A stretch of DNA of 41,197 nt from Chiloscyllium plagiosum. Taxonomy: Eukaryota. How positions within the stretch are numbered: the stretch's first letter is position 1; each line of letters begins with the position of its first letter. The notes beneath the pieces are model-generated. The model was given only the letters and a program-made list of their open reading frames with translations, ran no database searches and was not told the DNA's origin. The stretch spans positions 11,616,915 to 11,658,111 of the forward strand of contig NC_057752.1 in NCBI RefSeq assembly GCF_004010195.1, read 5' to 3'. The position numbers and the translations under genes are program-made. Below, in pieces: positions 3,434-35,330 of this stretch.

Positions 3434-4315
3434 TCAAGCAATTGGTGCAACCAAAGAGTTCAAAGTGTCCTTGATCAGTTGCCTAAACTTGGATAGCATT
3501 GCCAAATAAATAAAGGCATTTGCATAATAAGTAACAGTCAGCAAAATAATTGAAATGTCTCTACATATTTTGATAGCTTCAGTTCAATAATCTCTCCTAA
3601 CACTGTAACGTATGAAATTTATAATGCGCCCATCCATACAAGTACAAAACTGTTGAAAATAGCAAACAGCAAACTAACTGGCTTCCTTCTTTTCTGTCTC
3701 TCTGGGTCACTGTGACTCTCTCCTTTATTCTGACCCCTCAGTCCCTTACGGACTCGACTCGTTACTAAAATGTGCTTGACTGTCAGAGTGTTGAGTAACA
3801 GAATTAATACAAATGGGAGCAACGGGGTTATAAACTTGTTAAATATGTCATCCCCTCTCCATCCTGCCTCAGTCAAATAGCTTTTCTTCAGCTTACATTT
3901 CAAGGGCACATTGTTGACTATATACCAAGGTTCATATTTAAAGTAGATAGGCACATTTCTTGAAGCAGAATAGAATGCAGGTTGTTGCTAGAATCACTTT
4001 TGCAGTTCTTTCAGTGCAATACTTTGTTTTCAGTTTCTGGCAACAAATGACTACAAATCGATCAAAGGAGAAAAACCACAGTGAACCAGACAAAAGAGTC
4101 TCTGATCACAAAATGTAAGACATACAAGAAACTACACATGGGGATGAGTTCCAGAAAAGAGTCTTGTGAAGAATATTAAGGAAAAAAATTGCTTCAGGAT
4201 GGTGTTAGTGATAGTAGACAGCAGAATCATTGTTGACATGGCCACCAAGTAGCAATGGTGCAGGTGGAGATGCTACACTTGACACGTGAAAGAATCACAA
4301 TCACAAGTAAATTAA
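3434..4315 (-). pseudogene. GPR139/GPR142-like GPCR pseudogene (exon 2 only recognisable)
   Basis: Minus-strand acceptor ttctttctatcccgcag|TTAATTTACTT (VNLLVIVILSR..C.ISTCT) sits at the same position as in the intact gene. Later segments read SFDRFVVICCQKLKTKYCTE, the ORF 3619-3954 (TM4-TM6) and ANAFIYLAMLSKFR. Frameshifts occur near TM2 and DRF, with a premature stop after TM6. Confidence 0.9.
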
Positions 4316-12495: not shown

Positions 12496-12496
12496 A

Positions 12497-12855
12497 TGGA
12501 GGTGCCGGTGTAGGACTGGTGTGCACCAAGTTAAAAAACATTCTATTTTGTTTTAAAAGCACACAATCTGCAGGCAGGGAATGCCGGCAGTAAATCTATG
12601 TAATATTTTATAAATTCCTGTTTTGGAAATAGAGCCTGGCTCAGGTTTGGGATACAGACAGATTCTAACCTCACGCCTTTAATGCATTGTCTGAACTGAG
12701 ATGTCATTTTTTTTTTAATAAAACTTTAAGTTATCTCGAGAATGTGACTTGAAAGATGTTGTGGGATTTACATATTAATGAAATGAAACCTGCAAACCAT
12801 TCTAAAAGATGAAAGACTTAACACAATCTACGTTTGTTCAATATATCGTTTCATA
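12497..12855. repeat. Interspersed repeat fragment (same family as 39993-40125, probably Penelope-like)
   Basis: Starts TGGAGGTGCCGGTGTAGGACTGGTGTGCACCAAGTTAAAAA, matching TGGAGGTGCCGGTGATGATTTGGGGTGTACAAAGTTAAAAA near 40002. Confidence 0.55.
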
Positions 12856-12865
12856 CATCATTTCA

Positions 12866-12973
12866 CTTATTTATGTAGCAACACTGTGCAAGTTCAGAGA
12901 AAAGTTTACAAACGCATTAATGTTTCCTTTTAAGCAAACTACTCAATGTCAGCATCAACAAAACAAATGGTAA
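12866..12973 (+). pseudogene. Truncated GPR139-like paralogue remnant (TM7 end/helix 8 only)
   Basis: LIYVATLCKFREKFTNALMFPFKQTTQCQHQQNKW* matches the intact gene's C-terminus (21/23 aa identical over the first 23), and the downstream flank is also homologous. Confidence 0.9.
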
Positions 12974-13138
12974 TGCCACACCATGTGAACTGGAATGGAT
13001 AACAGTGATCGCTGGATGAATGGATGAAAACAAAGGTTCTGTCGGATCAAATCTGTCAATTAGTGATGACGAGAAAGGTACTCAGTGCATTAATAAGAGC
13101 GTGTCATTAAACATTTAAGGCACACCAAAGACTACTGT

Positions 13139-13407
13139 GGCACGGTGGCTCAGTGGTTAACAGTGCTGCCTCACAGCGCCAGAGACCCGGGTTCAATTCC
13201 CGTCTGTGTGGAGTTTGCACATTCTCCCCGTGTCTGCGTGGGTTTCCTCCGGGAGCTCCGGTTTCCTCCCACAATCCAAAAATGTGCTGGTTAGGTGAAT
13301 TGGCCATGCTATAATTGTGGGTTGCTCTTCAGAGAGTCGGCGTGGACTTGTTGGACCGAAGGGCCTGTTTCCACACTGTAAGTAATCTAATCTAAAACAC
13401 TTGTAAT
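13139..13407 (+). mobile_element. HE1 V-SINE with 7-bp target-site duplication
   Basis: A box TGGCTCAGTGG, B box GGTTCAATTCC, intact V-domain and (TAATC)n tail. CTACTGT duplicated at 13132-13138 and 13408-13414. The paralogous site near 28880 is empty. Confidence 0.95.
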
Positions 13408-13499
13408 CTACTGTATCAAGAACAATGGATGAACATGAATAAATGGGGAATGATCAGTGTCACAGAGTGTCCTCGAGCAAGAAAGGAGACAGAATTCTG

Positions 13500-14190
13500 A
13501 CCCTGTCCATCAGGAACTCGACATCAACCCCATTCCCTGTACCCTCCCCTGTGACAGGATGTTCCACAATCAGAGCTGTCTGAGGGCAATCCTCCAGGTG
13601 CCCTTTCGAACAGCACGGAGCACATTCTCTACTGCTACGTCTCCGGACATGCATTGGCATGACGTTTTCCCCTCCGTGGGCTGAGATTCCCATCGGCGTG
13701 TCCTCTTACCCCGGGGATCTGGTGTGGAGAATGCTGCATGCAGTGGTCCCAAGCATTCGTAGGCTGAGGGAGTTCACCGGGCGTCAGACCACACACATGT
13801 TCTGTGGCCTGGAGGAGACGGTTTTCCATGTTTATGTCGAGTGTGTTCATTTGCAGCCTCTTGCTTGGTTTTTGTAGAGGTTGTTTTTAAAATGTTGCTT
13901 ACATTTCAGTCCCACCCTCCTGATACTGACACTGGGTGTGGGGATGGGTGGGCAAATCTACAGGCCTTCTCATTCCTCTGCTCCTGGGCCTGGACAGTTC
14001 CTGACTGTCTGCCCCTCTTTCAGGTTACCTCTGCCCTCGGGTGTCCCTGCAGAGGAAGCATCTGCTCATCACCAGCATGGTTGAGGCCTTTCGAGACTGG
14101 TGGGCACTGCGGGAGCTGGACTGCATCATCAGCCTGGAAAATGATATTGTCATTCAGTAAGTTTCTGTTCCATCATAATTGTTTTTTTCC
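13500..14190 (+). mobile_element. Tx1-like (L1 clade) LINE 3' end
   Basis: ORF 13659-13877 reads GDLVWRMLHAVVP...MFCGLEETVFHVYVECVHLQPL, the C-terminal CCHC-type zinc knuckle typical of Tx1 ORF2. GC-richer than the flanks and absent from the right duplication copy. Confidence 0.8.
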
Positions 14191-16204
14191 AATTTTCATT
14201 TTTGATATTCTGAAAGAAACAAGGGATTCATTCTATCCTGTGTTGGCCCTATCCCAAGTGAGATTGATGTGGATGGCTGCAGGGGATTTGATTTTTAGTT
14301 TACTTTGACTTCTCATGTTTTGAGTGACTCTATTTTAACCTCTTGTTGTCACTACACTGATTTCCTCAGTGTAGTGTTCCTAGCCCAACAATTTTACACT
14401 TCGTCCACCATAATGTCAAAGGGAAGGATATTCACTGCTGGTTGCACAATGTTCAGCAAAATAGATTAAGAAAGACTAATGTGGGTCAATTCTATGAAAA
14501 GACAGACATTTATAACAGGAAAGTGGGAAAGGTTAGAGAAGGGAAATAAGTACTTTGTGTCTTTCTTAACAGTGAACGACACAGGAAGTGAAATGTGGAA
14601 CTGAACGAAATTCAATGTCGATATTGTAGAGAAGTCATATTGGAGATATTAATGATGTTGAAAAGGGCACTGCTGGCCTTTGCCTGAGAGAGTTGAAAAA
14701 GATGTCGACAGAGAGATTGAATATCGCATAAAGATTTCCACCACGTACATTGATCATCACAATTCACATGATATTAATACTTCAATGCGGACAGCTGTTT
14801 AGCATTTTGAAAATGTTGCATTATTGTTTAAGAAAGGGAGTACAATAAAAATAGCAGTGGCGGATCTGTAAATCTGACCTCAGTCATTGGGGAGGTGACT
14901 AATTTATTACAAAGCAGATACGTATTTGACAAGTAGAAAACAAAATTTACTAATTCAGCAGAGGCAATTCAGAATTGTGAAGGGGTGAGAACTGACAGGA
15001 ATTCCTGAAGATGATACTGACAGAGTTCATGTGGTGAAGCATTGGATGTGGTGGATTTGGATTCTCCGAAGGATTCTGATAAAGTGCTTAATGGGAAACA
15101 ATATGAATGTGCAAGGGATTTTTGGTAATATACCACCGTGAATTAAGAATAGTGTCACAGACATGGTGGGAACATTGCACTGGGAATCAAGATACACTCA
15201 TCCACAAGTCATCTCAAATATGAAATATGATGGTCAATATCTGACTGCGATCTCTGTCGAAGATAAAGAAATCATTTTTCACGATAAAATTTAAAATAAA
15301 ACAGCATGAAAACAGAAGTCATGTTTTGTGTAACAATCTATCCTTTAACCAGTGGGCAACAAATGACTAAATACTGCTCTGAAAACTTCAACTGTTTCGC
15401 ACAAAAATTCAACAGACGCGCACATTCAAGCACAGAAGAAAGATCAACAAGACACATGAGAGACTTTTGAAGAAATATCACTGGCTTGAAAAGACAAACA
15501 AAAATATCCCTTGGATAAAGTATCCAAACCACAAGAGGAAATGCCAAACTGTTAGTTTGGAGTCAGAATATTTCACATTTCTGTCACCAGACACAATGCA
15601 CAATTGAATAGCTGTGGGGTGGTCTCTCTGACTTCAATATTTTCTTTGTGTACGGTCTTTGAATGTCTTTATCACCTTATCACACCCTGGCAGCTTAATG
15701 TTCCGGGGTATAAAGGAAAGGTAGGACAGGAAGTGAAGCAAGAGAGGAGGGGGAGTGAGATTTTTATTTAGGGATAACCATTATGGCTGGACTTGAAGAA
15801 GATATTCCTGAGGGATCACCCAATGGTTTTATATGGGTAGGACTGAGAAATAAGAATGGAGTGATTACCTTGATGGAATCGTACAATAGCCCCCCAGTAG
15901 TCAACAGGAAATCAGGGAACAAAAATGTGGGGAGATCTCAAATATATGTAAGTATATGTATATATGTTGGCTGGGGAGAAAATTGTTAAGTGTGTTCAGG
16001 AAAACTTTCTTGTTCAGTAGGTGGATGTACCCAGTGGAGAAGGGGTAAAATCCGACATTCTGTTGGGACATAAGGTAGGGCAAATGACTGAGGAGTTAGT
16101 GGGGGAGCACTCTGGGACCAGTGATCATAATTCCATCCGTTTTAAAACAGTTATGGAAAAGGATAGGCCTGACCCTGATAGTTAAAGTCCTAAATTGGAG
16201 TAAG

Positions 16205-16498
16205 AGCTGAAAATGTGTTGCTGGAAAAGTGCAGCAGGTCAGGCAGCATCCAAGGAGCAGGAGAATCGAACGTTTCAGGCATGAGCCCTTCTTCAGGAAT
16301 GAGGAAAGTGGTTGGAGGGTTCCTAGGTGGAAGATGAGACGCTCTTCCTCCAACCGTTGTGTTGCTATGGTCTGGCGATGGAGGAGTCCAAGGACCTGCA
16401 TGTCCTTGGTGGAGTGGGAGGGGGAGTTGAAGTGTTGAGCACGGGTGGTTAGGTTGGTTGGTCCAGGTGTCCCAGAGGTGTTCTCTGAAACGTTCCGC
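16205..16498 (-). mobile_element. Penelope-like element fragment: GIY-YIG C-terminus plus terminal repeat, 10-bp TSD
   Basis: Minus frames read AERFREHLWDT..NQPN and AQHFNSPSHSTKDMQVLGLL..RLEEERLIFHLGTLQP. TTGGAGTAAG duplicated at 16195-16204 and 16499-16508. Confidence 0.9.
16264..16300 (-). ncRNA. Minimal hammerhead ribozyme motif
   Basis: CTGAAGA (16296-16290), extra A, stem II GGGC-TCAT-GCCT, GAAA, CGTT (putative GUU cleavage triplet). Stem I is weak. Confidence 0.6.
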
Positions 16499-16693
16499 TT
16501 GGAGTAAGGCCAGTTTTGATGGTATCGAACAGGAACTTTCAAAAGTTGATTGGGGAGACTGTTTGAAGATATCAAGCATCAAGCATGTGGGAGGTTTTCA
16601 AAAAAGAGATCATGAGAGTTCAGCAACAGCATGTTCCTGATTGTGTGAACGACAATACTGGTAGATGTAGCTGCTGGAAGATGAGAGATATTG

Positions 16694-16928
16694 GGGGGGA
16701 TGGATTAGAGTGTGCTGGAAAAGCACAGCAGGTCAGGCAGCATCCAAGAAGCAAGAAATTCGATGTTTCGGGCAAAAGTCGTTCATCAGAAACTCTGACT
16801 CCTGATGAAGGGCTTTTGCCCGAAACGTCGATTTTCCTGCTCCTCGGATGCTGCCTGACCTGTGTGCTTTTCCAGCACCACTCTAATCTAGACTCTGATC
16901 TCCAGCATCTGCAGTCCTGACTTTCACC
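16694..16928 (+). mobile_element. Penelope-like fold-back insert (inverted plus direct terminal repeat), 12-bp TSD
   Basis: Imperfect inverted arms about 16703-16789 and 16802-16888 around a 12-nt spacer, then a 3' tail of about 39 nt. TGAGAGATATTG duplicated at 16682-16693 and 16929-16940. Confidence 0.9.
16797..16835 (+). ncRNA. Minimal hammerhead ribozyme motif, best-preserved copy
   Basis: CTGATGA (16802-16808), extra A, perfect stem II GGGC-TTTT-GCCC (16810-16821), GAAA (16822-16825), palindromic ACGT stem III and GTC triplet (predicted cut after 16829). Confidence 0.72.
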
Positions 16929-17202
16929 TGAGAGATATTGAGGCTCTAGTCAAGAAAAATAAAGAAGTAGGTTTGAATGAGAATATAGAATTTATGGTTA
17001 ATAAGTTTGCAGATGACACCAAAATCAGTGTTAAAGTGGACAGTGAGGACGGTTATGGAAGAGTACAACAAGACCTTGATCAAATGGGACAATGGATCGA
17101 GGAGTAGCAGATGGACTTTAATTCAGATGAATGAGAGGTGTTGCATTTTGGCAAGGCAAACCAGGGCAGGACTTATATAGCTAATGGTAGGGCCCTGGTA
17201 AG

Positions 17203-17330
17203 ATTCCAGAAGAAGGGCTTATGCCCGAAACGTCAATTCCCCTGCTCCTTGGATGCTGCCTGGCCTGCTGTGTTTTTCCAGCATCACATTTTTCAACTCT
17301 GGTCTCCAGCATCTGCAGTCCTCACTTCCT
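17203..17330 (+). mobile_element. Penelope-like solo terminal repeat, 10-bp TSD, hammerhead core mutated
   Basis: CAGAAGA-A-GGGC-TTAT-GCCC-GAAA-CGTC followed by the shared CCAGCATCTGCAGTCCTCACTT end. CCCTGGTAAG duplicated at 17193-17202 and 17331-17340. Confidence 0.9.
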
Positions 17331-17504
17331 CCCTGGTAAGTATTGTCAAACAGAGAGACCTCAGGGTACAGGTACATAGATCCTTGAAAGAGGTGTCACA
17401 GGAAGATAGGGTGGTTAAGACGGCGTTTGGTCCATTTGACTTCATTGGCTAGAGCATTGACATTAGGAGTTGGGATGTCATGTTGCATCTGTACAAGATA
17501 CTTG

Positions 17505-17890
17505 CTGATGATATCCAACTTGATGAGAATGTGAGCTGTGAGGAGGATGGACAGCAGTTTCAAGGAGATTCAAAAAAGGCTGAATTAATGGAGAAGAACA
17601 TTGCTGATGGGATATAAAGTGGACACGTGTGAAGTTATTCTCTTTTGTTGGAGTATGGGCGGATATTTGTCAGAGGGTGAGAAATTGGAACATATTACCG
17701 CCCCAACAGCTGTCTCTGATCCTTTTACATGAGTGACAGAAAGCTAGCCTATGTGTGCAGCAATCCATGTGGAATGGAAGTGGATGGTAACCTTTATTGC
17801 AAGTGTTTTTGAGAATACAAATGCAGAAGTCATGCTATAATTACATGGAACAGTGTTAAGACCACACCTGAAGAATTTCATTCAACCTTA
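17505..17890 (+). mobile_element. Old CR1-like ORF2 fragment (different subfamily)
   Basis: ADDIQL/CEED-like and CEVILF-like remnants, and GTTAAGACCACACCTG (VRPHL). Confidence 0.55.
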
Positions 17891-17957
17891 TCAATATCTT
17901 AAAGTGAGAGGGTGACAGCACATACTAAAGTGCTGGGAAGTGAGAGAAAGTAATAGC

Positions 17958-18275
17958 ATGATGGCTATGTGGTTAGCACTGCTGCCTCATGGTACCAGGG
18001 TCTCAGGTTCGGTTTCAGCCTTGGAGGAACTGTCTGTGTTGAGGTTGCTGATTCTCCCTGGGTCTGCATGGGTTTGCTCCAACATTCCAAAACTGTCCAA
18101 GTTCAGTGGATTGGCCATGTTGAATTATCCACAATATCCAAGTATGTGTGCGCGTGGGAGATTCACCGTGGTGAACATGGGGCAACAGGATAGGGAAGGG
18201 GGTGGGGTCAGGATAGGTGCTTTTCAGAGGGTCGTTAAGGGCAGAATGGCCTCTTCCTGCACTGCAGTAATTCGA
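17958..18275 (+). mobile_element. Degenerate HE1 V-SINE
   Basis: GTGGTTAGCACTGCTGCCTCA head, partial V-domain, GGATTGGCCATG and AATGGCCTCTTCCTGCACTG tail. Confidence 0.8.
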
Positions 18276-18407
18276 CAGACAGAATAATTTTTGGAAAGAC
18301 GCATCCCTTGGCTGTGCAATAAAGAAGCAGGGGACAACATTGTCAAATAAAATTGAAAACACGAAGACTGGTCTGAGGAACAAGGTCTTCACTCAAGAGA
18401 TTTCTAG

Positions 18408-18905
18408 CGTCATGGAGTTATCCACCAGAGAAACAAATCCTTCTGTCCAACTTGCCTATGCTGAACAGACGTCCTAAATCTATCTAGTCCCATTTGCCAG
18501 CACTTGGCCCATATCCCTCTAAACCCTTACTATTCATATGCTCATCCAGATGCCTTTTAAATGTTGTAATTGACCAGCCTCTATCACTTCCTCTGGCATC
18601 TCATTCCATACATGCACCACTCTCTGCGTGAAAAGTTGCCCATTGAATCCTTTTCACATCTTTCCGCTCTCACCCTAAACCTATACCCTGTAGTTCTGGA
18701 AACCCTACCCCAGGGGAAATACCTTGTCTAAATACCCTATCAATGTTCCTTATAATTTTATAAACCTCTATAAAGTTACCCCCTCAGACACCGACACCTC
18801 AGCCTATTCAGCCTGCCCCTATAGCTCAAACCTTCCAACCCTGGAATCATCCTTGTAATCTTTTTCTGAACCATTTCAAATTTAACAACATCCTTCCGAT
18901 AGGAA
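18408..18905 (-). mobile_element. CR1 LINE 3' end
   Basis: Closely resembles 20921-21440 (CATATCCCTCTAAACCCTT..ATCCAGATGCCTTTTAAATGTTG). The minus strand encodes EVYKII-type motifs. Confidence 0.88.
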
Positions 18906-19490
18906 TGGTAACTCTTTGGAATTGTCTCCCCCCAGTGAAATGTGGGAGCTCAGTCACTCAGTCAGTTCACAGCAGATATTGATGGATTTTTCTTTACTAG
19001 AGACACCAAGGGAGACACCAAGTTAGAGCACAAACGCAGCAATGGGAGAGAGGGTCAGCACAATGTCCCTTTAACAAGTTAGGATGGGAAATGAAAGGTC
19101 TTGGAGTGTGGGGAAGAAAGATTGAATCCAAAGGGTATTGACTAATCAACTGAATCTGGAATCATGGGTAAATCATGGGTGAAGTGATGGTTGAAATGGG
19201 GTTGCTGATTGAGAATAGCTGAGCTGCTCTTACAGAGAGCTGACCCAGTCAGCACAAACTCTGTCGAAAAATGCTAGGTAGGAGTATATTGTGATATGCT
19301 TGAGCCGAAAATGGCTTAATTGAATTTCTTCATCTCAAGAGAGCTGCAGAACCCTCCAAAACAGATTGCTCACTATTCTCCTTCACCAGAGAGTTAACTC
19401 TGCTGTCATAATTCTTCTTAGTGCATTCGTCAGAAAATAAACAACTGGAAAATTTTGCAACCACAGATTCCCCTGGCAGTTCCTACAGGG

Positions 19491-19497
19491 TATAAAA
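19491..19497 (+). promoter_or_regulatory. TATA box of the GPR139-like gene
   Basis: Consensus TATAAAA in non-repetitive sequence, 80 nt upstream of the exon 1 ATG. Confidence 0.65.
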
Positions 19498-19570
19498 CAA
19501 GGGTGTTTATCCCACTCTGAATCAATGAGGTTACTGGCAGCATAAAGTGATTGATCTCTTCGCTCAGAAA

Positions 19571-19637
19571 ATGCATCGACCAATCCAAGTGATCAGGAAC
19601 ATATTCTACATTGCAGTAGCGGTACTCGGTTTGCCTG
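19571..19637 (+). CDS. GPR139/GPR142-like GPCR, exon 1 (MHRPIQVIRNIFYIAVAVLGLP + phase-1 G)
   Basis: AAAATGC start context, a hydrophobic first half of TM1 ending GLP and a perfect donor G|GTAAGT at 19638. Phase 1 joins exon 2 to give GLP-V-NLL, the class A TM1 GxPxN motif. Confidence 0.88.
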
Positions 19638-19663
19638 GTAAGTGTCTGTGATTGTTGAGGGTA

Positions 19664-19790
19664 GGGCTCTTGTAGTGCAGTGGTAGTGTCCCTACCCCTG
19701 AACTGAAGCAGGCCTGGGTACAAGCTCCCCCTGTTCCCCATGTGTTTCTCACATCTCTGTGCAGGTTGATTAAAAATTGCTGGAATTGTT
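19664..19790 (+). mobile_element. Probable degenerate tRNA-derived SINE head
   Basis: A-box-like TAGTGCAGTGGTAG and weak B-box-like GGGTACAAGCTCCC. Confidence 0.4.
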
Positions 19791-19813
19791 GAGGTTGCCT
19801 GAATCAATGTGGG

Positions 19814-19952
19814 CTGAAAAATGTGTTGCTGGAAAAACGCAGCAGGTCAGGCAGCATCCAAGGAGCAGGAGAATCGACGTTTCGGGCATAAGCCCTTTTC
19901 CAGCAACACATTTTTCAGCTCTGATCTCCAGCAACTGCAGTCCTCACTTTCT
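19814..19952 (+). mobile_element. Penelope-like fold-back mini-insert in the receptor intron, TSD up to 16 bp
   Basis: Perfect 24-bp inverted repeat (GCTGAAAAATGTGTTGCTGGAAAA / TTTTCCAGCAACACATTTTTCAGC) enclosing an antisense half-hammerhead (GGGC-TTAT-GCCC-GAAA-CGTC). CCTGAATCAATGTGGG at 19798-19813 and 19953-19968. Confidence 0.9.
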
Positions 19953-20689
19953 CCTGAATCAATGTGGGGTTTGTTTCCTGCTGTCATACTGTCACTGAAC
20001 ATGGCTGATCGAATCATCCCAACTCAACAGACATCCAGTCAGTAAAATCATTCTGTTAAATCCACTGTCTGATGGTTGTGGATAGATTCTGTTCCCTGAA
20101 CTGATATGGTGTCATAGAGACTTCTCTTCATTATAAAGCTATTGAATCACTGGAATGGTGTTTGCCTGTTCGAACAATCATAAAAGCAGGAAAGAATGGA
20201 AAAATGTTGTGGGAGGATCTCTCAATTCAGAATGGGTCTGAGTGTGGTCACTGACTGGAGTGAAACACCCGGGGCAAGTGATCATGAAGCATTGAGAGGA
20301 TCTGCCACTCTGACTGTTGTTTCATTGTTGTAAGTACAAACATGATCGTGTACAGAGGGTGTTGGTAGAAATATAGGAGATCGACACGAGGATGTTTGGT
20401 CTTACTTATGAAAAGCTACATTACATTGTTCTATATTGTGTTCCTACTTGCATACAAATCGACTGACAAACATCTTCAAGAATGAAACCTATTTATCACG
20501 TGGGGACTGCCTGTAGGGGAATTGCTGCACACACAGTATTGTGGTTAATACACTACAGGCTACCTTCAATTTAGTTCCTTCAGAAGAACTCTCACAGACA
20601 ACCATGTACCGAAATAGTGATTTGAACTTTATTGCATGTAACAAACAAAGTGTGACACCTCAAGTTAGCAAATTAAGCCTCACAACTGA

Positions 20690-20752
20690 ATAGGGTTGGT
20701 GTGGACTTGTTGAGCCGAAGATGCCTGTTTCCATACTGTAAGGAAACTAAAT
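20690..20752 (+). mobile_element. HE1 SINE 3' tail fragment
   Basis: GGGTTGGTGTGGACTTGTTGAGCCGAAGATGCCTGTTTCCATACTGTAAG. Confidence 0.7.
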
Positions 20753-20920
20753 CTTATTTCATTGGAAAGTTAAAAAAAAAGTTTGAGTAAGCTCTGGTAG
20801 AAATGATATTAGAAAAACTTTTTAGCTTGTTATCAAAACATGGATAAATTGTTTTTGCTAACATCCAATTTGAACTCTGAATTTGGGATGAGAAAATGTT
20901 TGTGCATGTACCTTGTATTT

Positions 20921-21652
20921 ATAGAGTCAGAGAGGCATAGGAATGTACAGCACGGAAACAGGCCCTTCGGTCCAACCCATCCATGCTGACCAGATATCCA
21001 AACCTAATCTAGTCCCACCTGCCAGCACCTGGCCCATATCCCTTCAAACCCTTCCTATTCATATACGCATCCAGATGCCTTTTAAATGTTGCAACTGTAC
21101 CAGCCTCCACCTTCACCTTACTCTGGCAGCTCATTCCATACACGTGCCACCCTCTACGTGAAAAAGTTGCCCCTTAGGTCTCTTTCTTAGGTCTCTTTTA
21201 TGTCTTTCCCCTCTCACCCTGAACCTATGCCCTCGAGTTCTGGACTCCCCCACCCTGTGGGAAAGACTTTTGTCTATTTATTCTATCCATGCCCCTCATG
21301 ATTTCATAAACCTCTGTAAGGTCACCCCTCAGCCACCGATGCTTCAGGGAAAACAGCCCTAATCCTCCAACCCTGGCAACATCCTTGTAAATCTTTTCTG
21401 AATCCTTTCAGGTTTCACAACATCTTTCCGATAGGAGGGAGACCAGAATTGCACACGATATTCCAACAGTGGCCTAACTAATGTCCTGTACAGCCACAAC
21501 ATAACCTCCCAACTCCTGTACTCAATACTCTGACCAATAAAGGAAAGCATACCAAACACCTTCTTCACTATCCTATCTACCTGAGACTCCACTTTCAAGG
21601 AGCTATGAAGCTGCACTCCAAGGTCTCTTTTTTCCGCAACACTCCTTAGGAT
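20921..21652 (-). mobile_element. 5'-truncated CR1 LINE
   Basis: ORF 21359-21616 (LYRTLVRPLLEYRVQFWSPSYRKD...QKRFTRMLPGL) plus the CR1 3' UTR and tail. Confidence 0.92.
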
Positions 21653-22724
21653 CTTGGAAAATGTTTCATTTAAGACAACAAAAATGTAAAATGTGAGATT
21701 ATTAAAATATTTTCTGACAGTTTTTTTAAAAATAAACTGAATATATGTAAGTATAACATGACATCACCTAGTAACCTGGGCTCTGCCCCTTCTGAGGCCA
21801 GCAGAGTGCCCTCGTCCTGCTGTCTGTTTTAAATCTTCTGACACGCCTCCTAAGTGGTGTGATTTATGATTCCGGGAATGATTAACGCATTGGGCTTCTT
21901 CCAGTCAACTCTGTTGCTTCGGAACAGGTTTCAAGAACACAGCAATGGAGCTGGAAGTCTTACAAAGACAAAGTCTTTGAAAACAGCAGAACTCCTAAGT
22001 GACTACAATCATCTGAATCTCCAGTATAAGGGATTTGTTGAAAAGTACCAAGCCTGGATGTAATTGTTTCTGAAATTGAGATTGATAACATTACTTGATA
22101 CCAGGTGCTAGTTCAAACATGCAATAGGACATTTCATCTAATGATAAAGGGCAAATAGTTGTAAATCATTAAATTTTAACTTGAAAATAAGAGAAGCTAA
22201 CAGAATCAGTCCGGGCAGTTTTAATTTGGAGAAAATAAATGCTGGGAAGAATTAATTGGCCACTAATGAATTCTGTCAGCCGGACAATAATGCAAGGACA
22301 CAAAACAAAGTTGAGTCAGTTGCAGTCAATTTTGAATTTGGAATAATTTTGAAAAAAAAGGTAGCCAATTATAACCAAACAATTTATATTTGAGAAAGAG
22401 CAAACAAGCAAAAACTGGGCATGGGCATGCTTGTAAACCAGGCAGTAATAATGTTAGTTTGTCTCCTTTGAAGCTGTTGTGGAGACATGTCGTTTTTGTT
22501 TAATCTGGACAGTAAAGCGTTCTCTGGGATTCCTGAATCATCATAATGGGAATTGATGGACGGGGTGGGGGGGGGGGGGGGGGGCACACTTAAAATAGAA
22601 GAAGAGCAATAGGTAGAAAGTGACTTAGCATCAAGTGGAAATGGGAATGACTCAGTGCAGTTAAACGGAATATTGTTAATGAAATCCAAGTGTATATAGA
22701 ATGAGATAATTAACAGCTTCTCTT

Positions 22725-25490
22725 GCAGATACATGCGTGGACGAACATCTGGCCCTTCGAGCCTGCTCTGCCATTCAATAACATTATGGCTAATCTTTTC
22801 GTGGACACAGCTCCACTTACCCATCCTCTCACCGCACCCCTTAAATCCTTTATTTTTCAAAAAGAAAATCGACCATAACTTTAAAAATGTTTACAGAAGT
22901 AACGCCAACTACTTCCCTGGGCAAGGAATGCCAGAAATGTACCACCCTCTGGGTGAAGAAGTTCCTTCTCAATTCAGTCCTAAATTTGCTCCCTTTAATC
23001 TTGAGGCTATTCCCACTTTTCCTAGCTTCAGTGGAAACATCCTCTCTGCTTCTATCCTATCTATTCTCTTCATAATTGTATATGTCTCTAAATGGTCCCC
23101 CCTCACTCTTCTGAATTCCAATGAATATATTCCCAATCTCCTCAGTCTCTCCTCAAAAACCAACCCCCTCAACTCCAGAATCAACCACCTCTTCACCCCC
23201 TCCAGTGCCAGAACATCCTTTCTCAAGTCAGGACACCAAAACTGCACACAGTACTTCAGGTGTGGCCTCACCAGAACCTTGTACAACTACAACACATCTC
23301 TCTGCTTTTAAACTCAATCCCTTTAGTGATGAAGGAAAACATTCCATTTGCCTTCTTAATCACTTGTTGCACCTGCAGACCAACCCTCTGTGATTCATGC
23401 ACAAAGACTCCCAGGTCCCCCTGCACAGCAGCATGCTGCAGCTTTTTCCTATTCAAGTAATAACTTTTTTTGCTGTTACTCCTATCCAAAATGGATGACT
23501 TCACATTTATTAACATTATATTCCATCTGCCAGACTGTTGCCCACTTAGTCAATGCATCATTGTTCCTCTTCAAAGTTTCACAGTCCTCTGCACACTTTG
23601 CTCTGCCACTCACCTTTGTGTCATCTGTAAACTTTGGCACCCTACACGTGGTCCCCAACTCCAAATCATCGATATAATTTGTAAATAATTGCAGTCCCAA
23701 CACCGATCCCTGAGGCACACCACTAGTCGCTGATTGGCAGCCAGAATATTTATTCATTTATTCCCAATCTTTGCTTATTGGTCGTCAAGAAATCCTCTAT
23801 CCATGCTAACATTTTAACCCTGACGCCATGCATACTTATCTTATGCAGCAGCCTCTTGTGCGGCCACTTGTTGAAGGCCATTTGTTCCATCCAGGTACCC
23901 CATAACTACTGGATCTCCATTGTCCACCTTGCTCGAAATGTCTTCATAGAATTCCAAAAGATTTGTCAAGTGTGACCTGCCCTTCATGAACTCATGCTGC
24001 GTCTGTCCAATGGGACAATTTCTATTGAGATGCCCTTTGATTTCTTCCTTGATAACAGACTCAAGCATCTTCCCCACAACAGAGGTTAAGCTAACCCAAC
24101 TATATTCCCCATCTTTCATCTATTCATCATATCCTATAACAAAATACCCCTTCTCATCCTCTAAAGGACTAACATTTACTTCCACCACTCTTTATCGTTT
24201 TATAGATTTACAGAAACTTTTGCTATTTGTCTTTATATTCTGTGCTCGTTTTTGTTCTAATTTTCGGTGTTACTTTTCTTTACAGCACTTTTTGTGGCTT
24301 TGTGTTGAGTTTTAAAGTTTTCCCAATCTTCTAGTTTCATGCTTTTCTTGACCACTTTGTATGCCTTCTCTTTCAACCTTACTTCCTTAGATACCCATGG
24401 CAGATTATCCCTTTTCTTCCAGTCCTTCCCTTTCACTGGAACATACGTTTGCTGAGTACTTTGAAAAATGGCTTTGAAAGACTTCCACTGCTCGTCAACT
24501 GACCACCATAAATCTTTGTTTCCAGTCCACTTTAGCCAGGTCCTCCCTCATTCTGTTGTGGTCCCCCTTGTTCAAGCACAGGACCCTGGTATTGGATTTT
24601 ATCTTCACACTCTCCATCTGTATACTAAATTCAACCACACTGTTGATCACTCCTTCCAAGAGGATCCCTAACTATTAGGCTATTAGTTATTCCTGTCTCA
24701 TTACACAGGACCAGATCTAGGAAAGCTTTATCCCTCATCGGTGGCATTACCTACTGTTCAAGAAAACTATCATGGATACACTCAACGAACTCCTCTTCAA
24801 GGCTACCCTGACCGAGCTGGTTCGACCAACCTACATGTAGATTAAAATCTCCCATAATAGCCGTACCATTTTTACAAGGCATTACTTATTTCTTGGTTTA
24901 TCGCCCACCCCAATTCTGCCTTGAACTTAAACCATCCTGCACACATGCTAACGTGCTGCTTACCTTTTTATTTATCATCCTTATTCCTTCCTGTCGTTTT
25001 CCCTTCCCTTCTCCTTGACTCACAAATTTAAAGTCCTAGTGACCACTCTATTTATCCTTTTCGCTTGAACACTGGTTCCAGATCGGTTCAGGTGCAGAGC
25101 GTCCCATCAGTACAGATCCCCTGGTTCCAAAACTGCTGCCAATGTCCCATGAAAGGGAACCCCTCTTCCCCACACCATTCCATGAGCCACGTGTTCACTT
25201 CCCGAATTTCCTTATCCCTAAGCCAACTTGCACGTGGCTGGAGCAAATTGCTTGATAATCCCCATTGCCTATGTTGTTAGTCCCAATGTGAATCACAACA
25301 ACTGGATTCCACCCACCCTCCCACTCCAATAACCTTTCAAGCCGGTCCTGCATCCTGGCACCAGGCAGACAACACACCATGCGGGACTCCCAATCTAACT
25401 TGCACCTATCCTCCTAATGGTAGGATGCCCCATAATTACCATTTGTCTTTTTGCTCCCTCCTCTTGAATGGCCTTCTGCACTTGTGCTGC
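22725..25490 (-). mobile_element. Degenerate CR1 LINE with deletions (ORF1 esterase to ORF2 3' end)
   Basis: VRPHLKYCVQFW, SGVPQGSVLG..FT.YIDDL..FTDDTK and QHEFMKGRSHLTNLLEF. ORF1 SGNH-esterase motifs VCCLPGA and VVIHIGTNNIG at 25195-25380. Confidence 0.92.
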
Positions 25491-25492
25491 TG

Positions 25493-25830
25493 TCATAGAG
25501 TATCACAGAATCCCTACAATGTGGAAACAAGCCATTTGCCCAACAAGTCCACACCAACACTTTGAAGAGTATCCCATGCAGACTCATTCCCCTACCCCTA
25601 TTACTCTCCATTTCCCCTGACTAATGCACCTAAGCCGAAGGATGCCTGGACACTATGGACAACTCAGCATCTTCAATTCACCCTGATCCACACATCTTTG
25701 GACTGTGGGAGGAAACTGGAGCACCCAGGGGAAAGCCACGCAGACACGGGGAGAATGTGCACAGTTACCCGAGCCTGGAATCGGTCCCTGGCGCTGTGAG
25801 GCAGCGGTGCTAACCACTGAGCCACAGTGG
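25493..25830 (-). mobile_element. HE1 V-SINE
   Basis: Reverse complement shows GTGGCTCAGTGGTTAGCACCGCTGCCTCACAGCGCCAGGGAC, a V-domain and the CR1-type tail. Confidence 0.92.
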
Positions 25831-26768
25831 GCAGGAAAATAAGGGAGGTGGGTTCAACTCTGGCCAGCTGGCTCATCCTCTCTACAGTCCATGCGTTTGT
25901 TACAGGGAACTGAATTAACTGATTTGGCCACCACGTGGAACACTGAACCAAGTGAAGATGTTAAACAGGCTCCCTCGAAAGATCAGTCGAATGTCAAGAA
26001 TGTCTGGCGTGCTCTTCGGATACTGATGTAAGTGTGCAAAAGGGATTGTTGTATCTGAAGTAACTGACATACTGGAATGCATAGTGAAAATGCACTGAAG
26101 AATAGAACACCGATGTGTGCGCCTACTCGATAAAATGATTATTGTATCTTGGAAGGTCACAAAAATAATGTTTAAATGATAAGGCACTGGCATATAACAC
26201 ACAGAGATACTGAATGTTGGTTTTGGTGGGAAGGAGATAAAAATTACAATTTGAGAGAAAGAGGAGAAAATATTGTAGGAATATCCGCAAGATGGGGGAA
26301 AGTGAAGGAAGAGCTGGAGAAGGTTTGAATTCCATGTATAATTTGCTCACATGTATAATCAGCTTGCAACTATTGAACAACATGTATGTGCTCAAGGGAG
26401 GCCTTAATAATCTGTGTTGAGGATCTCTGGGGTGGAATGGGATCCTTACAAAATGCTGTTGTCAAACCAGACAATTAAGGGTTAATTGATAAGGGATAAT
26501 GGACATGGCAATTAGGAATTGTGACCAAGTGGAAGATTACTGGCCTAGTACAAAAACAATTGATTTTGGCTGTTGTGGAACTGCACATCCTTGACTGCAT
26601 TTCAGAACCATTCTTTTATCCAGTTGACAATGGGTCACCTGGACGATGTTCCCAGCTGATTGTCTGTACAATGGAATTTCTGGAAAAGGACTGAAATGGT
26701 GCTGCAGTACGTAACCAGAATAGCATTAATGTCAGGGACTCTGTCACTCTTGTCGGATTTCACCTTGG

Positions 26769-26921
26769 TTTTGGATCAGTGGTGCTGGAAGAGCACAGCA
26801 ATTCAGGCAGCATCCGAAAAGCTTCGAAGCTTTTCGGATGCTGCCTGAATTGCTGTGCTCTTCCAGCACCACTGATCCAGAATCTGGTTTCCAGCATCTG
26901 CAGTCATTGTTTTTACCTCGT
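26769..26921 (+). mobile_element. Penelope-like fold-back insert forming a perfect 108-bp palindrome (26772-26879), 14-bp TSD
   Basis: 54-bp arms with zero spacer, centred between 26825 and 26826. The tail TCTGGTTTCCAGCATCTGCAGTCATTGTTTTTACCT is identical to that at about 36684-36719. GGATTTCACCTTGG at 26755-26768 and 26922-26935. Confidence 0.93.
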
Positions 26922-27811
26922 GGATTTCACCTTGGACCAGGATTGAGAATGATGCCAGGAACCCCGAGGCCCCCACACCAGCAGTCAGAAAGTAGGGTTC
27001 CCCACATGCAGGGGTCAAGGAGACTTGTTGTTAACCATGCCAAAAGTAGTTTCAGCTAATAGATTCACTCATTAGCTTGGGTATGTCTCGAATGTATATT
27101 AAATGGATTAAGCTAATAAATCTGATTTATATCAAAAAGCACATGTTTTCTTGTAATAATTTGATCAACCTAAAGGAACCTGAAAGGGATTTTCATCCTA
27201 ACAATAGACTGACAAGTAGTACGTTGGAATAAAGGGAAATCTACCAGATTTCTTGTACATGAATCTATCAACAAACGTTTGACTCATTGCTAAAAATGGT
27301 CGACAAGTGATTTTAAAAAATCCCTGAATGATGTGCAATTACCAACAAGGATTGGCTCGTTAACGTGGCTTGGGAGTTGTGGGTGGAGTTAAAAGTAATG
27401 GTGAGTAAAGCTGATCGACAGGGGGTAAGATCATAACATGTGACATGTGAAGGACAGACACTCAAGTCAGAGAGTGAGTCTATTGGGGTAGTGAGTATTT
27501 CTTTGAATGTCAGGCACTTTGCAACAGAAAAGGAAATAGAATACGTTGCAGCCGGTGGAGCAGAGGGTCTACTCCAACGTTACACTTCTCCAGCTTTAGA
27601 CACACAATGCCTCACTGGAATATTAAAGCACTGACCTGCTTCCAGTGAGCAGGCCGCTACATCCCTCTGACAGATACCTGTTCAATCTGATCTGAACACC
27701 TTGCAGACCTGTTGAAGTCATGGCTGATTTTTTTTTTCAATGGTCTGTCCTCAGAAACTGTGAATGATTTTTCTGTAATTACTAATCTCCTTTCTCTTCA
27801 CTCTCTCACAG

Positions 27812-28701
27812 TGAATTTACTAGCACTTGTGATTTTATTCAGAGGAAAATGTGGGATATCCCCATGCACCACCTGTTACCTGATCGCCATGGCAGCAGCA
27901 GATCTACTGTACATTATCCTTGAGGTCATACTGTACCGGATCAATAATTATTATTTCCCTCTGAATTTCTTGGATGTGACGACTGTCTGCAGAGTTCACT
28001 ACACCCTGCGCCGTGCTGCCACCGATTGTTCTGTCTGGTTCACCGTAACTTTTACCTTTGATCGATTTGTTGCCATTTGTTGCCAGAAGTTGAAAATGAA
28101 ATATTGCACCAAGAAAACTGCGACAGTGGTTCTAGCAACAACAGGCATTCTGCTCTGTTTCAAAAACATTCCCACCTACTTCAGGTACGAAGCTAAACGA
28201 ATCATTAACAATGTCGAGTGGTACTGCACCAATACTGAAGCATATTATAGTGATCCCATATGGAGAGGATTCAATAGGTTTGAAAAGGTCTTAACTCCAA
28301 TGCTCCCATTTGCTTTAATTCTGTTGATCAACACTCTGACAGTCAGGTACATTTTAGTGGCCAGTCGGGCCCGTAAGAGATTGAGAGATCAGAGCAAGGG
28401 GCAGAATCATTGTGACCTAGAGATGGAGAGCAGAAGAAAGTCTATCATTTTACTCTTTTTTATATCCAGTAGTTTCATCCTTTTATGGATGTGGTACCTT
28501 TTGAAATATTTTAATACCTTAGATCCATTATTAGAAGAAAATTCTGAATATATATTCCGATACGTCGCAAATATGCTCCGGGATATAAATTGCTGCACAA
28601 ACACACTTATTTATGTGGCAACACTGTCCAAGTTCAGAGAAAACTTTACAAATGCATTGATGTTTCCTTTTAAGCGAATTATTCATTGTAAGCATCAATA
28701 A
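27812..28701 (+). CDS. GPR139/GPR142-like class A GPCR, exon 2 (spliced product 318 aa, apparently intact)
   Basis: Branch-like CTAAT at about 27782, pyrimidine tract and acceptor CACAG| at 27811. Open frame with seven-TM motifs YLIAMAAADL, SVWFTVTFTFDRFVAIC, TM3/ECL2 Cys pair, LPFALILLIN and CTNTLIY..SKFR. No specific orthologue symbol can be assigned. Confidence 0.93.
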
Positions 28702-30270
28702 AACAAATGGTAATGTCACACCATGCAAAGGGGAATGCATAACAGTGATTGCTAGATGAATGGAGGAAAAGAAAGTTTCTGTTGCAGAACATCTGTCCAC
28801 TATTAGTGATGACGATAAATGCACACAAAGCATTTATACAAGGAAGTCATTAACCATTGCGTTTAAGACACACCAGAGACTACTGCATCAAAAACAACGG
28901 ATGAACATGAAGGAATGGGAACAACCAGTGTTGCAAAGTCTCCTGAGGAGCAGAAGAAGGCAGAATTCACAGAAATTGTTCTCACTACATTGGTTTGATT
29001 CTTAGCTGCTCACATCATGAAGAATATCTAATTCTGTGAAAAGAAAATGCTGTGCGTGGTGGAAATTTTCATGTGCCAATCTATGACTAAACTTTAAGGA
29101 GGATTATCATGGTATACTATCTTCTTATTAATACAAATTACAAACACTGGAGAACAGTGAGTAGTGACTGACCTTGACAAAAAGAGATATTTTACAATTT
29201 GCAGCATAAAAAGCCATTGCAAAACTGGAGTCAATGTGAATCAGGGGGCAATCTTTCCTCTGTTTGAAGGATCATGGAAGACAATGGAAGATAGTTGTTG
29301 TTGTTTGGGGATGGGTAACTCAGTTCCAGGACATCTCTGCAGGATTTCCTTCATGTAGTATCCCAGGCCCAACCATTTTACACTGTGTCCACCACAATAT
29401 CAAAGGGAAGGATGTTCACTGATGATGCACAACATTCAGCAAAACTGATTAAGAAAGTCTGATATGGGGCAATTCTGTGAAGAGACAGAGACCATTTAGA
29501 ATAACAAGGAGACAATCGGTAGAGAAGTGAAATGTATACTTCGTTTCTGTCTCAACACAGGAGGTCTCCCTGAAATAAGCAAGATTCAATGATCCAGTGA
29601 AAGTGTGGAACTGACAGAAATTTGATATTGAAGAGAAGATGCATTGTAAAAAATAATGATGCTGAAAATTACTACATTGAGGGGTCCGCTGGCCTTTGTC
29701 TGAGACCGTTGAAAATAATGTTGATAAAGGTAGCGAATGAGATTAATATCTCAACGCAGACTGCTGTTTGGTATTTTGAAAACGCAACATCATTCTTTAA
29801 AAAAGGAGAGAGTAAGAACATTTCCAATGCAGATCTATAAACCTGACATCAGTAGTCGGGAATATAACGAACTTATTTGAAGGCAAGTGATTATTTGACA
29901 GGTGGAAACAGATTCTCTACTTCAGCAGAGGCAGCACGGAATTGTGAAGGGGAGAGAACTGAGAGGATTTCCTGAAGATGTTACTGGCAGAGTTGATGTG
30001 GTGAAGCAGTGTATGTGGTGTATTTGGAATATGAGAAGGATTTTGATAATGTGCCTCATGGGAAACAATATGAATGTGCATGGGATTACGGGTAATATAC
30101 CACCATACATGAAGGATATTGTCACAGACATGATTGGAACATTGAACTGGGAATCAAGACACACTCGAAAACAAGTCATCTCAAAAATGAAATACTTACA
30201 GATGGTCAACATCTCACTGATCTCCATCGAAGATTAAAAAAAGCATCAGTTCCCATAGTGACTGTTAAAA
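28604..30270 (+). repeat. Right copy of the local segmental duplication
   Basis: Collinear similarity to 12864-15298, lacking the HE1 and Tx1 insertions of the left copy. Confidence 0.9.
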
Positions 30271-30271
30271 T

Positions 30272-32645
30272 CATTCATTCACTGCAGCCCTCCCTTTGTG
30301 ACTTCATACATTCATTGCAGCCCTCGTTATCTCAGTATCATTCACTCAGTGCAGCCCTACCTATCTCTGGAACATTATTCACTCACTACATCCCTCCCTA
30401 TCTCTGTAACATCACTCACTCACTGCATCCCTCCCTATCTCTGTAACATCATTCACTCCTGTACATCATTCACTCACTGCAGTCCTCCCTATCTCTGTAA
30501 TGTCACTCACTCACTGCAGCCCTCCCTATCTCTGTAACATCATTCACTCACTGCAGCCCTCCCTATCTCTGCAACATCATTCACTCACTGCAGCCCTCCC
30601 TATCTCTGTAACATCATTCACTCACTGCAGCCCTCCCTGTCTCTGCAACATCATTCACTCACTGCAGCCCTCCCTATCTCTGTAACATCATTCATTCACT
30701 GCAGCCCTCCCTATCTCTGCAACATCATTCACTCACTGCAGCCCTCTCTATCTCTGTGACATCACTCACTCACTGCAGCCTTCCTATATCTGTAAAATCA
30801 TTCACTCACTGCAGCCCACCCTATCTCTGTCACATCATTCAGTCACTGAAGCGCTACTTTTCTCTTAAATATCATTCACTCACTGCAGCATTTCCATATT
30901 TCTGTAACATGATCCAGTCACTGCATCACTCCTTATCTCTGTAACATCATTCAGTCAATGCAGCCCTCCCTATATGAGTAACATCATTCACACACTGTAG
31001 CGCTCCCTATCTCTGTAACATCATTTGCTCACTGCAGTGCTGCTTATCTCTGTGCCATCATTCAGTCACTGCAGCCCTGCCTATCTCTGTACTATCATTT
31101 AGTAACTGCAGCGCTCCCTATCTCTGTTCCATCATTCAGTCACTGCAGCATTTCTTTTCTCTATAACATCATTTAGTCAATGCAGCGCTTCCTATATCTG
31201 TGACATCAGTCACTCACTACAGCCGCCCCTATCTACATAGCAGCATTCAGTCACTGCAGCACTCCTTATCTCTGCACCATCATTCACTCACTGCCGCCCT
31301 CTCTATATCTGTAACATCATTCGCTCACTACAGCGTTCTGTATCTCTATACCATCATTCAGGCACTGCAGCCCTCCCTATCTCTGTAAAATCATTCAGTC
31401 ACTGCAGCAATCCCTATCATTGTAACATTATTCAGTCGCTGCATCCCTCCCTATCTCTGCAACATCATTCACTCACTGCAACCCTCCCTAATTCTGTAAT
31501 ATCATTCACTCACTGCAGCCCTCCCTGTCTCTGTGACATCATTCACTCACTGCAGTCCTCCCTATCTCTGTTACATCATTCAATCAGTGCAGGCCTCCCT
31601 AACTCTGTAACATCATTCACTCACTGCAGCACTCCTTGTCTGTGTAACATCATTCAGTCGCTGAAGCTCTCCCTATCTCTGTAACATCATTCACTCACTG
31701 CTATCCTCCGTAATTCTGTAACATCATTCACTCACTGCAGCTGTCCCTATCTACATAGCATCATTCAGTCACTGCGGCACTCCTTATCTCTGCAACATCA
31801 TTCACTCCCTCCAGCCCTCCCTAATTCTGCAATATCATTCACTTATTGCATCCCTCCCTATCTCTGTAATATCATTCACTCACTGCAATCCTCCCTATCT
31901 CTGCAACATAATTCACTCACTGCAGTCTCCCTGTCTCTGTGACATTATTCACTCACTGCAGTCCTCCCTAATTCTGTAACCACATTCAGTCACTGCAGCA
32001 CTCCCTGTCTGTGTAACATCATTCACTCACTGCAGTACTCCCTTACTCTCTAACATTATTCTGTCACTGCAGGACTCACTAATGCTGTCCCATCACTCCA
32101 TCCCTCCCTGCCTCTGTAGCATCATTCACTTACTGCGTCCCTCCCAACCTCTGTAACATCATTCATTCACTGCAGTTCTCCATGTCTCTGTCGCATCATT
32201 CACTCACTACAGAGCTCCCTATCTCAGCAACATCATTCAGTCACTGCCGCCCTCCCTATCTCTATAACATCATTCAAACAATACAACTCTCAGTATCTCT
32301 GTAGCATCATTCACTCACCATAGTGCTGCCGATCTCTGTACCATCTTTCAGTCACGGCAGACCTCCCCATCTCTGTAATATCATTCAGACACTGCAGCCC
32401 TCCTTATCTCTGTAATATCATTCAGTCACTGCATCGCTCCCTATATCTGTACCATCATTCAGTCATCACAACCCTCCCTATCTTTGTACCATCAATTAGT
32501 CACTGCAGCCCTCCCTAACTCTGTAACATTATTCAGTCACAGCAGTATTCCAGCCCTTCCTAACTCTGTAATATTAATCATTCACTGCAGTCCTCCCTAT
32601 CTCTGTTACATCATTCACTCACTGCAACCCTCCCAGTCTCTGTAG
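30272..32645. repeat. 37-bp minisatellite, about 64 copies (CATTCACTCACTGCAGCCCTCCCTATCTCTGTAACAT)
   Basis: Unit starts at 30541 and 30578 and continues in phase. Near-perfect units at about 30500-30750, with more diverged units elsewhere. Confidence 0.97.
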
Positions 32646-33699: not shown

Positions 33700-35330
33700 T
33701 GCACACTGTACAGCACAAGAAAGAACCTTTGGCCCACGATTTTGTGCCGAACCAGAAGCCAAAATAAACAGTGCCTTTCTAGGTGGTACGGTGGCCCGGT
33801 GGTTAGCACTGCTACCTCACAGTGCCAGGGGTCTGGGTTTGGTTCCTGTCTCAGGCGACTGTCTGTGTGGAGTTTTCACATTCTCCCTGTATCTGCGTGA
33901 GTTTCCTCCCAAAATTCAAACATATGCAGGTGAGGTGAACTGGCCATGCTAAATTGCGCATAGTGCTTTGGGATGTGTATGTTCGGTGCATTAGTCAGGG
34001 GCAATAACAGGGAATGGGTCTGGGTGGATACTCTTTGGAGGGTTGGTGTGGAAGTGTTGTGCCAAATGACCTGCTTTCACACTGTCAGGATTCCATGATT
34101 CTGCCTGCCCTGGGTTTATTTCCCTGTATTCCCTCAAGTCATGTGGTTATCTAAATGTCTCTTAAATGCCGCTGTTGTATCTGCCTCCACCAATACCCCT
34201 GGCAGTACATTCCAGACTCCTCCGGTTCTCTGTGTGAAACATTTGCCCCTCACATCTCCTTTGAACTTTCCTTTTTCACCTTAAATGCATTTCCTCTCGT
34301 ATTAGACATTCCAATTCCTGGGATAAAAAGATTCTGACCTTCAACCCTATCTATGCATCTCATAATTTTATAGATTTCTATCACGTCTCCCGTCTTCCTC
34401 TCCTGCTCCAGAGAGAACAACCTGAATTTGTCACACCTCTCCTTATATCTCATACCCTCTAATCCAGGCAGCATCCTGCTAAACTGTGTCTGCCCCTTTC
34501 CAAAGCCTCGAACTGTGAATGAACCAAAGTTGAATAAAAATGCAATATGACATCCTGACTCTTGTACTGAGTTCCATGACTAATCAAGACAAGCATTCCA
34601 TATGCCTTGTTGCCCACCCAATCTACTTGTGTAGCCATTGTCAGGGAGCTATTGACTTGAACCCCAAGATCCCTGTGTGTAACAATGCTGTTCAGTGTCC
34701 TACAATTAACAGTATACATTTCCTTGTCATCTGAGCTTTCAAAGTGCAGCACCTTACAATTACCTGGATTCAACTCCATCTGCCATTTCTGTGCCCATAT
34801 CTGCAACTGATCTATATTGCTCTATATCATTTGACAACCTTCTACACTATCCACAGCTCCATCGATCTTTGTATTATCTGCAAACTTCTGAACCCACCCA
34901 TCTGTATTGTCGTTCAAATCATTTACATATATCACAAACAGCAGAGGTCTGATTATGAATCCCTGCGAAACACCATTAGTCATGGACCACCAGCCTGAGA
35001 AACACCCTTCCACCACTACCATCTGCCTTCTATGGGCAAGCCAATTCTGAATCTACACAGCCAGGTTACCATAGATACCATGCATCTCAAACTTTTGAAT
35101 GAGACTATCATGAGTGAGCTTGTCGAAAGCCTTACTAAAATATATGTAAGTAACATCCATTGCTCTACGATCATCAATCACCTTTGTCACCTTCTCAAAG
35201 AAAATCCACTCAAGATAGTAAGACATGACCTGCCTTTCATGGAGCCATCCTGACTGTGCCTGATTAGGCCATGGTTTTGCAAATGTGCGTAAATTCTATC
35301 ACGAAGAGTTCTCTCCAATAGCTTCCCAAT
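33700..35330 (-). mobile_element. 5'-truncated CR1 LINE interrupted by an HE1 SINE
   Basis: ORFs 34250-34474, 34459-34806 and 34822-35022 (GVSQGFIIRPLLFVIYVND..KFADNTK, WQMELNPGNCKVLHF, GDVIEIYKIMR). Confidence 0.9.
33782..34101 (+). mobile_element. HE1 V-SINE
   Basis: GGTGGCCCGGTGGTTAGCACTGCTACCTCACAG head, GTGTGGAGTTTTCACATTCTCCC V-domain and GATTCCATGATT tail. Confidence 0.9.

Follow-up and report, generated by a model that had tools for sequence, protein, structure and literature searches.

The 41,197-nt window, the whole stretch of Chiloscyllium plagiosum DNA analysed here, is repeat-rich animal DNA that contains an intact gene which, at the sequence level, is a class A (rhodopsin-like) G protein-coupled receptor (GPCR). 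A pseudogene of a paralogue and a truncated tandem duplicate of the intact gene both lie less than 25 kb from it (Table 1). The two coding exons join in phase into a 957-nt reading frame without internal stops, which encodes 318 amino acids. The ATG of exon 1 at 19571 is preceded by an in-frame stop, the splice donor at 19638 reads CTG/GTAAGT, and the acceptor CAG, which ends at 27811, follows a tract that is 91% pyrimidine.

Table 1. Features of the receptor locus, in window coordinates.
Feature	Position	Strand	Remarks
Pseudogene, paralogue exon 2	3443..4315	-	stops, several frame changes; tblastn E 7e-32
Truncated tandem duplicate of the intact gene	12864..15275	+	retains only the final 32 codons and the 3' flank; broken up by repeats
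TATA-box candidate TATAAAA	19491-19497	+	80 nt 5' of the ATG; putative function
Coding exon 1	19571..19637	+	67 nt, ends in phase 1; encodes the short N-terminus plus the outer two-thirds of TM1
GT-AG intron	19638..27811	+	8174 nt; interspersed repeats within, no second exon 2 inside
Coding exon 2	27812..28701	+	remainder of TM1 through helix 8, stop codon

This two-exon model, with a hidden 67-nt first exon that completes a 318-aa protein, had been proposed by the first-pass annotation and is borne out by the in-phase, stop-free join and by homology. A profile built from the exon 1 peptides of 62 paralogues with a short N-terminus starting at Met matched only the exon at 19571 in all six frames of the window (E 1.2e-8; next best 0.14). 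Exon 1 and exon 2, queried separately against 419 proteins, both retrieved P0001 of the zebra shark as the top match, which is also the nearest protein to the complete receptor (78% identity) and whose residues 82-103 are 73% identical to the exon 1 peptide. Furthermore, a GxPxN-type motif in TM1 is present in 57 of the best 120 paralogues and lies at residue 20 in 40 of these 57, matching the spliced protein. Exon 1 is thus backed by the N-termini of paralogues, and the predicted splice junction 19637/27812 appears to be supported by homology. The alternative N-terminus of the open reading frame track (27712-27811), which the same annotation had placed within the intron, gave no match better than E 0.34 among the 419 proteins and was rejected as the real start. 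The TATA candidate, ATG and GTAAGT donor were likewise found where they had been described; TATAAAA occurs once on the plus strand of the window but seven times on both strands versus 5.6 expected by chance, and the match is thus weak alone. The N-termini of 58 of the best 120 paralogue database models are different or missing, and we infer that the small first exon was missed by many of these models.

Downstream of the TATA candidate and ahead of the main ATG there is a six-codon upstream open reading frame (19525-19545, plus strand), which is not in frame with that ATG. Residues 71-82 of P0001 read through sequence that is 5' UTR in the present model (window 19538-19573), the translation of which nearly matches, and several paralogue models carry Q-K directly before the Met; the start-codon context is suggested to be conserved among paralogues. 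At the 3' end, AATAAA (28697-28702, plus strand) overlaps the stop codon, and a further polyadenylation-like hexamer, ATTAAA, does not follow until 30233.

The family profile matched the pseudogene in six segments across three frames, and its acceptor AG lies at the same phase-1 position as in the intact gene; no exon 1 for this pseudogene was found within the window. The truncated duplicate is 82% identical over 282 nt to 28604-28885 and 71% identical over 963 nt to 29343-30246, and its stop position reads CAA near 12958. A 37-bp tandem array of ~59 copies (30266-32644) starts 1.6 kb 3' of the stop codon of the intact gene, and the similarity to the upstream duplicate stops 20 nt before it; the full 37-bp unit was not found elsewhere in the window. 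No 26-bp satellite was detected upstream of the gene, either within 4000-28000 at a score of 30 or across the window at a score of 50. A dispersed repeat of ~330 nt, 65-73% identical between copies, occurs at 5052-5388, 13139-13396, 25499-25829, 33782-34102 and 36838-37156, with one copy interrupting the truncated duplicate. The list of open reading frames of the window also contains coding fragments that we take to be retroelement-like.

Exon 2 matches PF00001 with 59.4 bits (cut-off 30.5; E 4.9e-16), and the predicted structure is a helical bundle (pLDDT 75) for which Foldseek retrieved class A receptors at TM-scores of about 0.6-0.7 with no clear leader; GPR139 was not among the 49 fold-search matches listed. 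The class A anchors N1.50, D2.50, C3.25, R3.50, P5.50, W6.48 and Y7.53 are all present in the 318-aa protein, and P6.50 and P7.50 are absent. The unusual features noted in the first-pass annotation are all present, namely DRF in place of DRY (residue 106), FILLWMWY without the TM6 proline (residue 244), NTLIY in place of NPxxY (residue 286) and a short N-terminus without an N-glycosylation sequon, the sole sequon of the protein being at residue 300 on the cytoplasmic side. These are family-wide traits rather than peculiarities of this gene: F3.51 is found in 113 and T7.50 in 117 of the best 120 paralogues, residue 6.50 is V, L or I in 103 of them (V being commonest, 79/120), and only one of the 62 short-Met-start paralogues has a sequon within its first 12 residues. 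The activation residues are retained in the same 120 proteins, with R3.50 in 119 and W6.48, N7.49 and Y7.53 in every one. Pfam domains of olfactory, vomeronasal and taste receptor families were absent from the 50 family members searched. Trace amine-associated receptors (TAARs) are marked by the aminergic D3.32, a position occupied by R in this receptor and, in most of the family, by L or I. By domain content and residue 3.32, the family would thus not belong to the OR, V1R/ORA, V2R/OlfC, T2R or TAAR repertoires.

The receptor had been proposed to belong to a lineage-expanded family, which agrees with the 2180 proteins retrieved at E<=1e-10 among 2989 candidates and with its position nested among shark paralogues in the tree described below. 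The best 120 of these 2180 matches, which constitute the paralogue sample used throughout, are all from sharks or rays, with over half from a single species, Heterodontus (68 by hand count), 38 of whose copies are located on one 74.5-Mb scaffold. Among 20 further strong family-profile matches, 18 are from sharks or rays and one from a chimaera (P0150), and family subgroups are common to sharks and rays. A large clustered expansion accompanied by pseudogenes, as is characteristic of chemosensory-type repertoires, is thus observed. Family members already have database entries, automatically named 'probable GPR139'. No description of this shark GPCR expansion was found in the literature accessible without subscription. 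GPR139 is not mentioned in the accessible parts of the catshark (PMC11979771) and whale shark (PMC8455134, including supplements) reports or in the bamboo shark report with its three supplements (PMC7677710). Taken alone, the gene is unremarkable within a receptor repertoire that is unusual and apparently undescribed.

The family profile also recovered proteins from bony vertebrates, including a salamander (187.7 bits), the coelacanth (178.2 bits) and two teleost proteins (155.4 and 112.3 bits); the same salamander and coelacanth proteins scored 53 and 70 bits against GPR139. The relatives comprise two sets of orthologues. Clade A consists of one sturgeon protein and 20 amphibian clusters, with each named species contributing a single cluster (21 of 25 matches among 1675 candidates), and probably represents a single-copy receptor; its members, such as P0226 (Pleurodeles), P0284 (Xenopus tropicalis) and P0300 (Acipenser), also bear the database name 'probable GPR139'. 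Clade B has members in coelacanth, teleosts, amphibians and reptiles; it also contains shark genes of its own (60-66% identity), three of which are among the 120 matches listed. In a 29-row tree, which omits 28 of 57 rows including two long outgroups, the shark family (14 rows, 91/83) and clade A form a group with 100/99 support, and clade B (100/99) lies outside it. A quick tree of all 57 rows likewise joins the shark family with clade A (95) but supports shark monophyly with only 78; true GPR139 and GPR142 are in neither tree. The amphibian/sturgeon receptor of clade A would accordingly be placed as the sister group of the shark family, with support of 100/99.

Clade A shares with the shark family the 24-26 residues before N1.50 (18/21) and a D-P-E-M..R-R-type motif in ICL3, which is found in 16 of 21 clade A and in none of 20 clade B sequences. 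In contrast to the shark family, clade A retains DRY and P6.50 and has an almost invariant, GPR139-like pocket (F3.33, W6.48, a basic K6.51 and N7.38). Among the matches listed, clade B extends to turtles and squamates and clade A contains only amphibians and the sturgeon; the listed matches of both clades name neither mammals nor birds. Two clade B receptors, P0351 and P0400 (from zebra shark and a frog), carry the name 'transmembrane protein 183A isoform', which suggests that clade B adjoins or lies within TMEM183A across jawed vertebrates and offers a handle on synteny. According to the accessible text of Rinne et al. (2019, PMC6504862), which does not mention sharks or cartilaginous fish, non-mammalian bony vertebrates possess GPR210A, GPR210B and a third set from gar and coelacanth beside GPR139/142. 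Like the receptors described here, GPR210A and GPR210B are orphans next to GPR139/142, and they and the third set may overlap clades A, B or C.

The label 'GPR139-like' given in the first pass holds in so far as GPR139 is the first match of the family profile among solved structures (60.5 bits, E 1.3e-15), but it is a loose name, as the nearest kin are separate non-mammalian receptors with short N-termini. GPR139 and GPR142 are class A orphans activated by L-Trp and L-Phe. The shark receptors share with GPR139 a two-exon gene, as described in the accessible part of PMC7318219, N at 5.58, W6.48 and the absence of P7.50 (NFFLY in human GPR139), and this copy also keeps N7.38 (N271 in GPR139). 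They differ from it in possessing the TM3-ECL2 cysteines (C3.25 is absent from the GPR139 chain), in lacking P6.50, in their shorter N-terminus and very low similarity, and in forming a large multigene family, whereas GPR139 is one conserved gene. Of the six GPR139 ligand residues, mapped by eye from the alignment with numbering checked on S62V in the accessible part of PMC8807744, only W241 and N271 are kept (W248 and N276), and E108, F109, H187 and R244 correspond to R89, R90, E180 and Y251. Since most of the GPR139 pocket for aromatic amino acids is not conserved here, L-Trp or L-Phe cannot be assumed to be the ligand.

We compared the ligand-facing and signalling sides of the receptor in pairs of 62-75% overall identity (4488 pairs of shark paralogues, 36 of clade A and 46 of clade B), using the two clades as orthologue controls. 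At 25 positions, which we take to line the pocket from generic numbering rather than from model coordinates, shark paralogues are 44% identical; the corresponding values are 94% for clade A and 81% for clade B. Over the cytoplasmic half, the same pairs show the reverse, with 83% identity among shark paralogues, 71% in clade A and 76% in clade B. None of 10,000 random sets of TM positions was as variable as the pocket, and in the 120 paralogues the outer TM halves average 1.35 bits versus 0.58 for the inner halves. Most of the GPR139-like pocket residues of clade A are replaced in the shark family; the deep pocket positions D3.37 (106/120) and R3.33 (78/120) are fairly constant in the best 120 paralogues. 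The pocket positions of this copy include E60, R89, R90, D94, E180, R272, R279 and D280, and it differs from P0001 at 6 of the 25 positions in the pocket, 29 of the 148 elsewhere in the TM segments and 12 of the 112 on the cytoplasmic side. The family thus combines a variable pocket with a conserved cytoplasmic face, as is characteristic of chemosensory-type repertoires.

High variability of the outer TM segments has been used to argue for chemosensory GPCR expansions in lophotrochozoans (PMC11886862, accessible part), and the shark family resembles these class A systems both in being expanded and in its high outer-segment entropy. Clusters bearing the nematode Srw domain (PF10324) were likewise among its feature neighbours, but PF10324 matches only one of 50 shark family members. 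Unlike the lophotrochozoan and Srw systems, the shark family belongs to vertebrates and keeps the TM3-ECL2 cysteine pair.

The explanation we put forward, and to which we give about an even chance, is that the gene is one unit of a birth-and-death receptor repertoire that senses varied water-soluble ligands in a sensory role. One gene of the jawed-vertebrate ancestor would have given rise to the shark family and would survive as the conserved receptor of amphibians and sturgeon. Tandem duplication and decay would build the repertoire of cartilaginous fishes, and after the expansion paralogues may have been tuned to different water-soluble polar ligands, such as amino-acid derivatives, amines or short peptides; beside this proposal we note the richness of this copy's pocket positions in Arg, Glu and Asp. 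All copies could signal through a shared G-protein route, probably Gq/11 or Gi by analogy with GPR139, for which this coupling is described in the accessible part of PMC8807744. The likeliest use would be chemosensation of molecules from outside or from the gut lumen. Against a sensory role, the 50 top genes of catshark brain and olfactory epithelium in the accessible part of PMC11979771 include no GPCR, a weak objection as known olfactory receptors are absent from them too.

The main rival is a sentinel or immune repertoire comparable to mammalian formyl-peptide receptors (FPRs) or MRGPRs, which are variable receptors for peptides and metabolites of microbial or damage-related origin; the shark receptors would then serve to sense such molecules on leukocytes, mast-like cells or somatosensory neurons. 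Expansion, pseudogenes and a variable pocket fit this possibility too, and the reported lack of MAS1 and its relatives in cartilaginous fishes (PMC8455134, accessible part) would leave room for an analogue, but we consider it unlikely, as the family has no sequence link to FPRs or MRGPRs, its best solved-structure match is GPR139, and the lineage is related to receptors for amino acids and neuropeptides (PMC12208981, accessible part). Pocket variability relative to the orthologue controls could also reflect relaxed constraint rather than selection. The receptor would then respond to an endogenous signal, its copies arising from a duplication-prone genome structure and drift, as the repeat-rich locus with its broken duplicates and the fairly constant D3.37 and R3.33 among the best 120 paralogues might indicate. 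We hold this to be distinctly improbable, because the paralogues diverge chiefly at pocket positions, their cytoplasmic half exceeds that of the controls in conservation, and subfamilies are common to sharks and rays.

Two further alternatives concern the gene itself. That its model is wrong or the gene silent, with another first exon or with exons 1 and 2 not co-transcribed, could be argued from a splice model drawn from homology, the upstream open reading frame starting at 19525 and seven donor-like NNG/GTRAG sites in 12000-27800; the presence of a single exon-1-like sequence in the window, the best relative shared by both exons and a frame that has stayed open while two neighbouring copies decayed make this very unlikely. 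Identity as the single-copy orthologue of GPR139 (or GPR142), sensing L-Trp or L-Phe, is the least credible of all and barely worth entertaining. The database names of the relatives, the structural match of the family profile and the retained W6.48 and N7.38 speak for it, but exon 2 matches the human GPR139 chain with only E 3.8e-5 (26.4 bits, below somatostatin receptor 3), compared with 70% identity between human and zebrafish GPR139 (PMC7318219, accessible part), four of six ligand residues differ, and the receptor nests among many shark paralogues, in a tree that excludes true GPR139 and GPR142. On these same grounds, the placement that the first-pass annotation had named as contrary to its view is counted against.

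If the repertoire is sensory, as we prefer, the family might constitute a further major class of vertebrate chemosensory receptors, independent of OR, TAAR, V1R, V2R and taste receptors and derived from a GPR139-related amino-acid or peptide receptor, which would account for a large share of chemical sensing in sharks, rays and chimaeras and whose ancestral ligand the conserved amphibian gene would reveal; this wider proposal is tentative and, on balance, doubtful. Cartilaginous fishes have been reported to possess comparatively few GPCRs and olfactory receptors (PMC8455134, accessible part), a picture that would be altered by a large family gathered under one automatic name with first exons that are often mis-modelled. 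The family would also supply candidates for chemical or immune sensing in sharks, and its kinship to a conserved gene of Xenopus and the axolotl would allow laboratory animals to be used for testing where it originated and what its ancestral ligand was.
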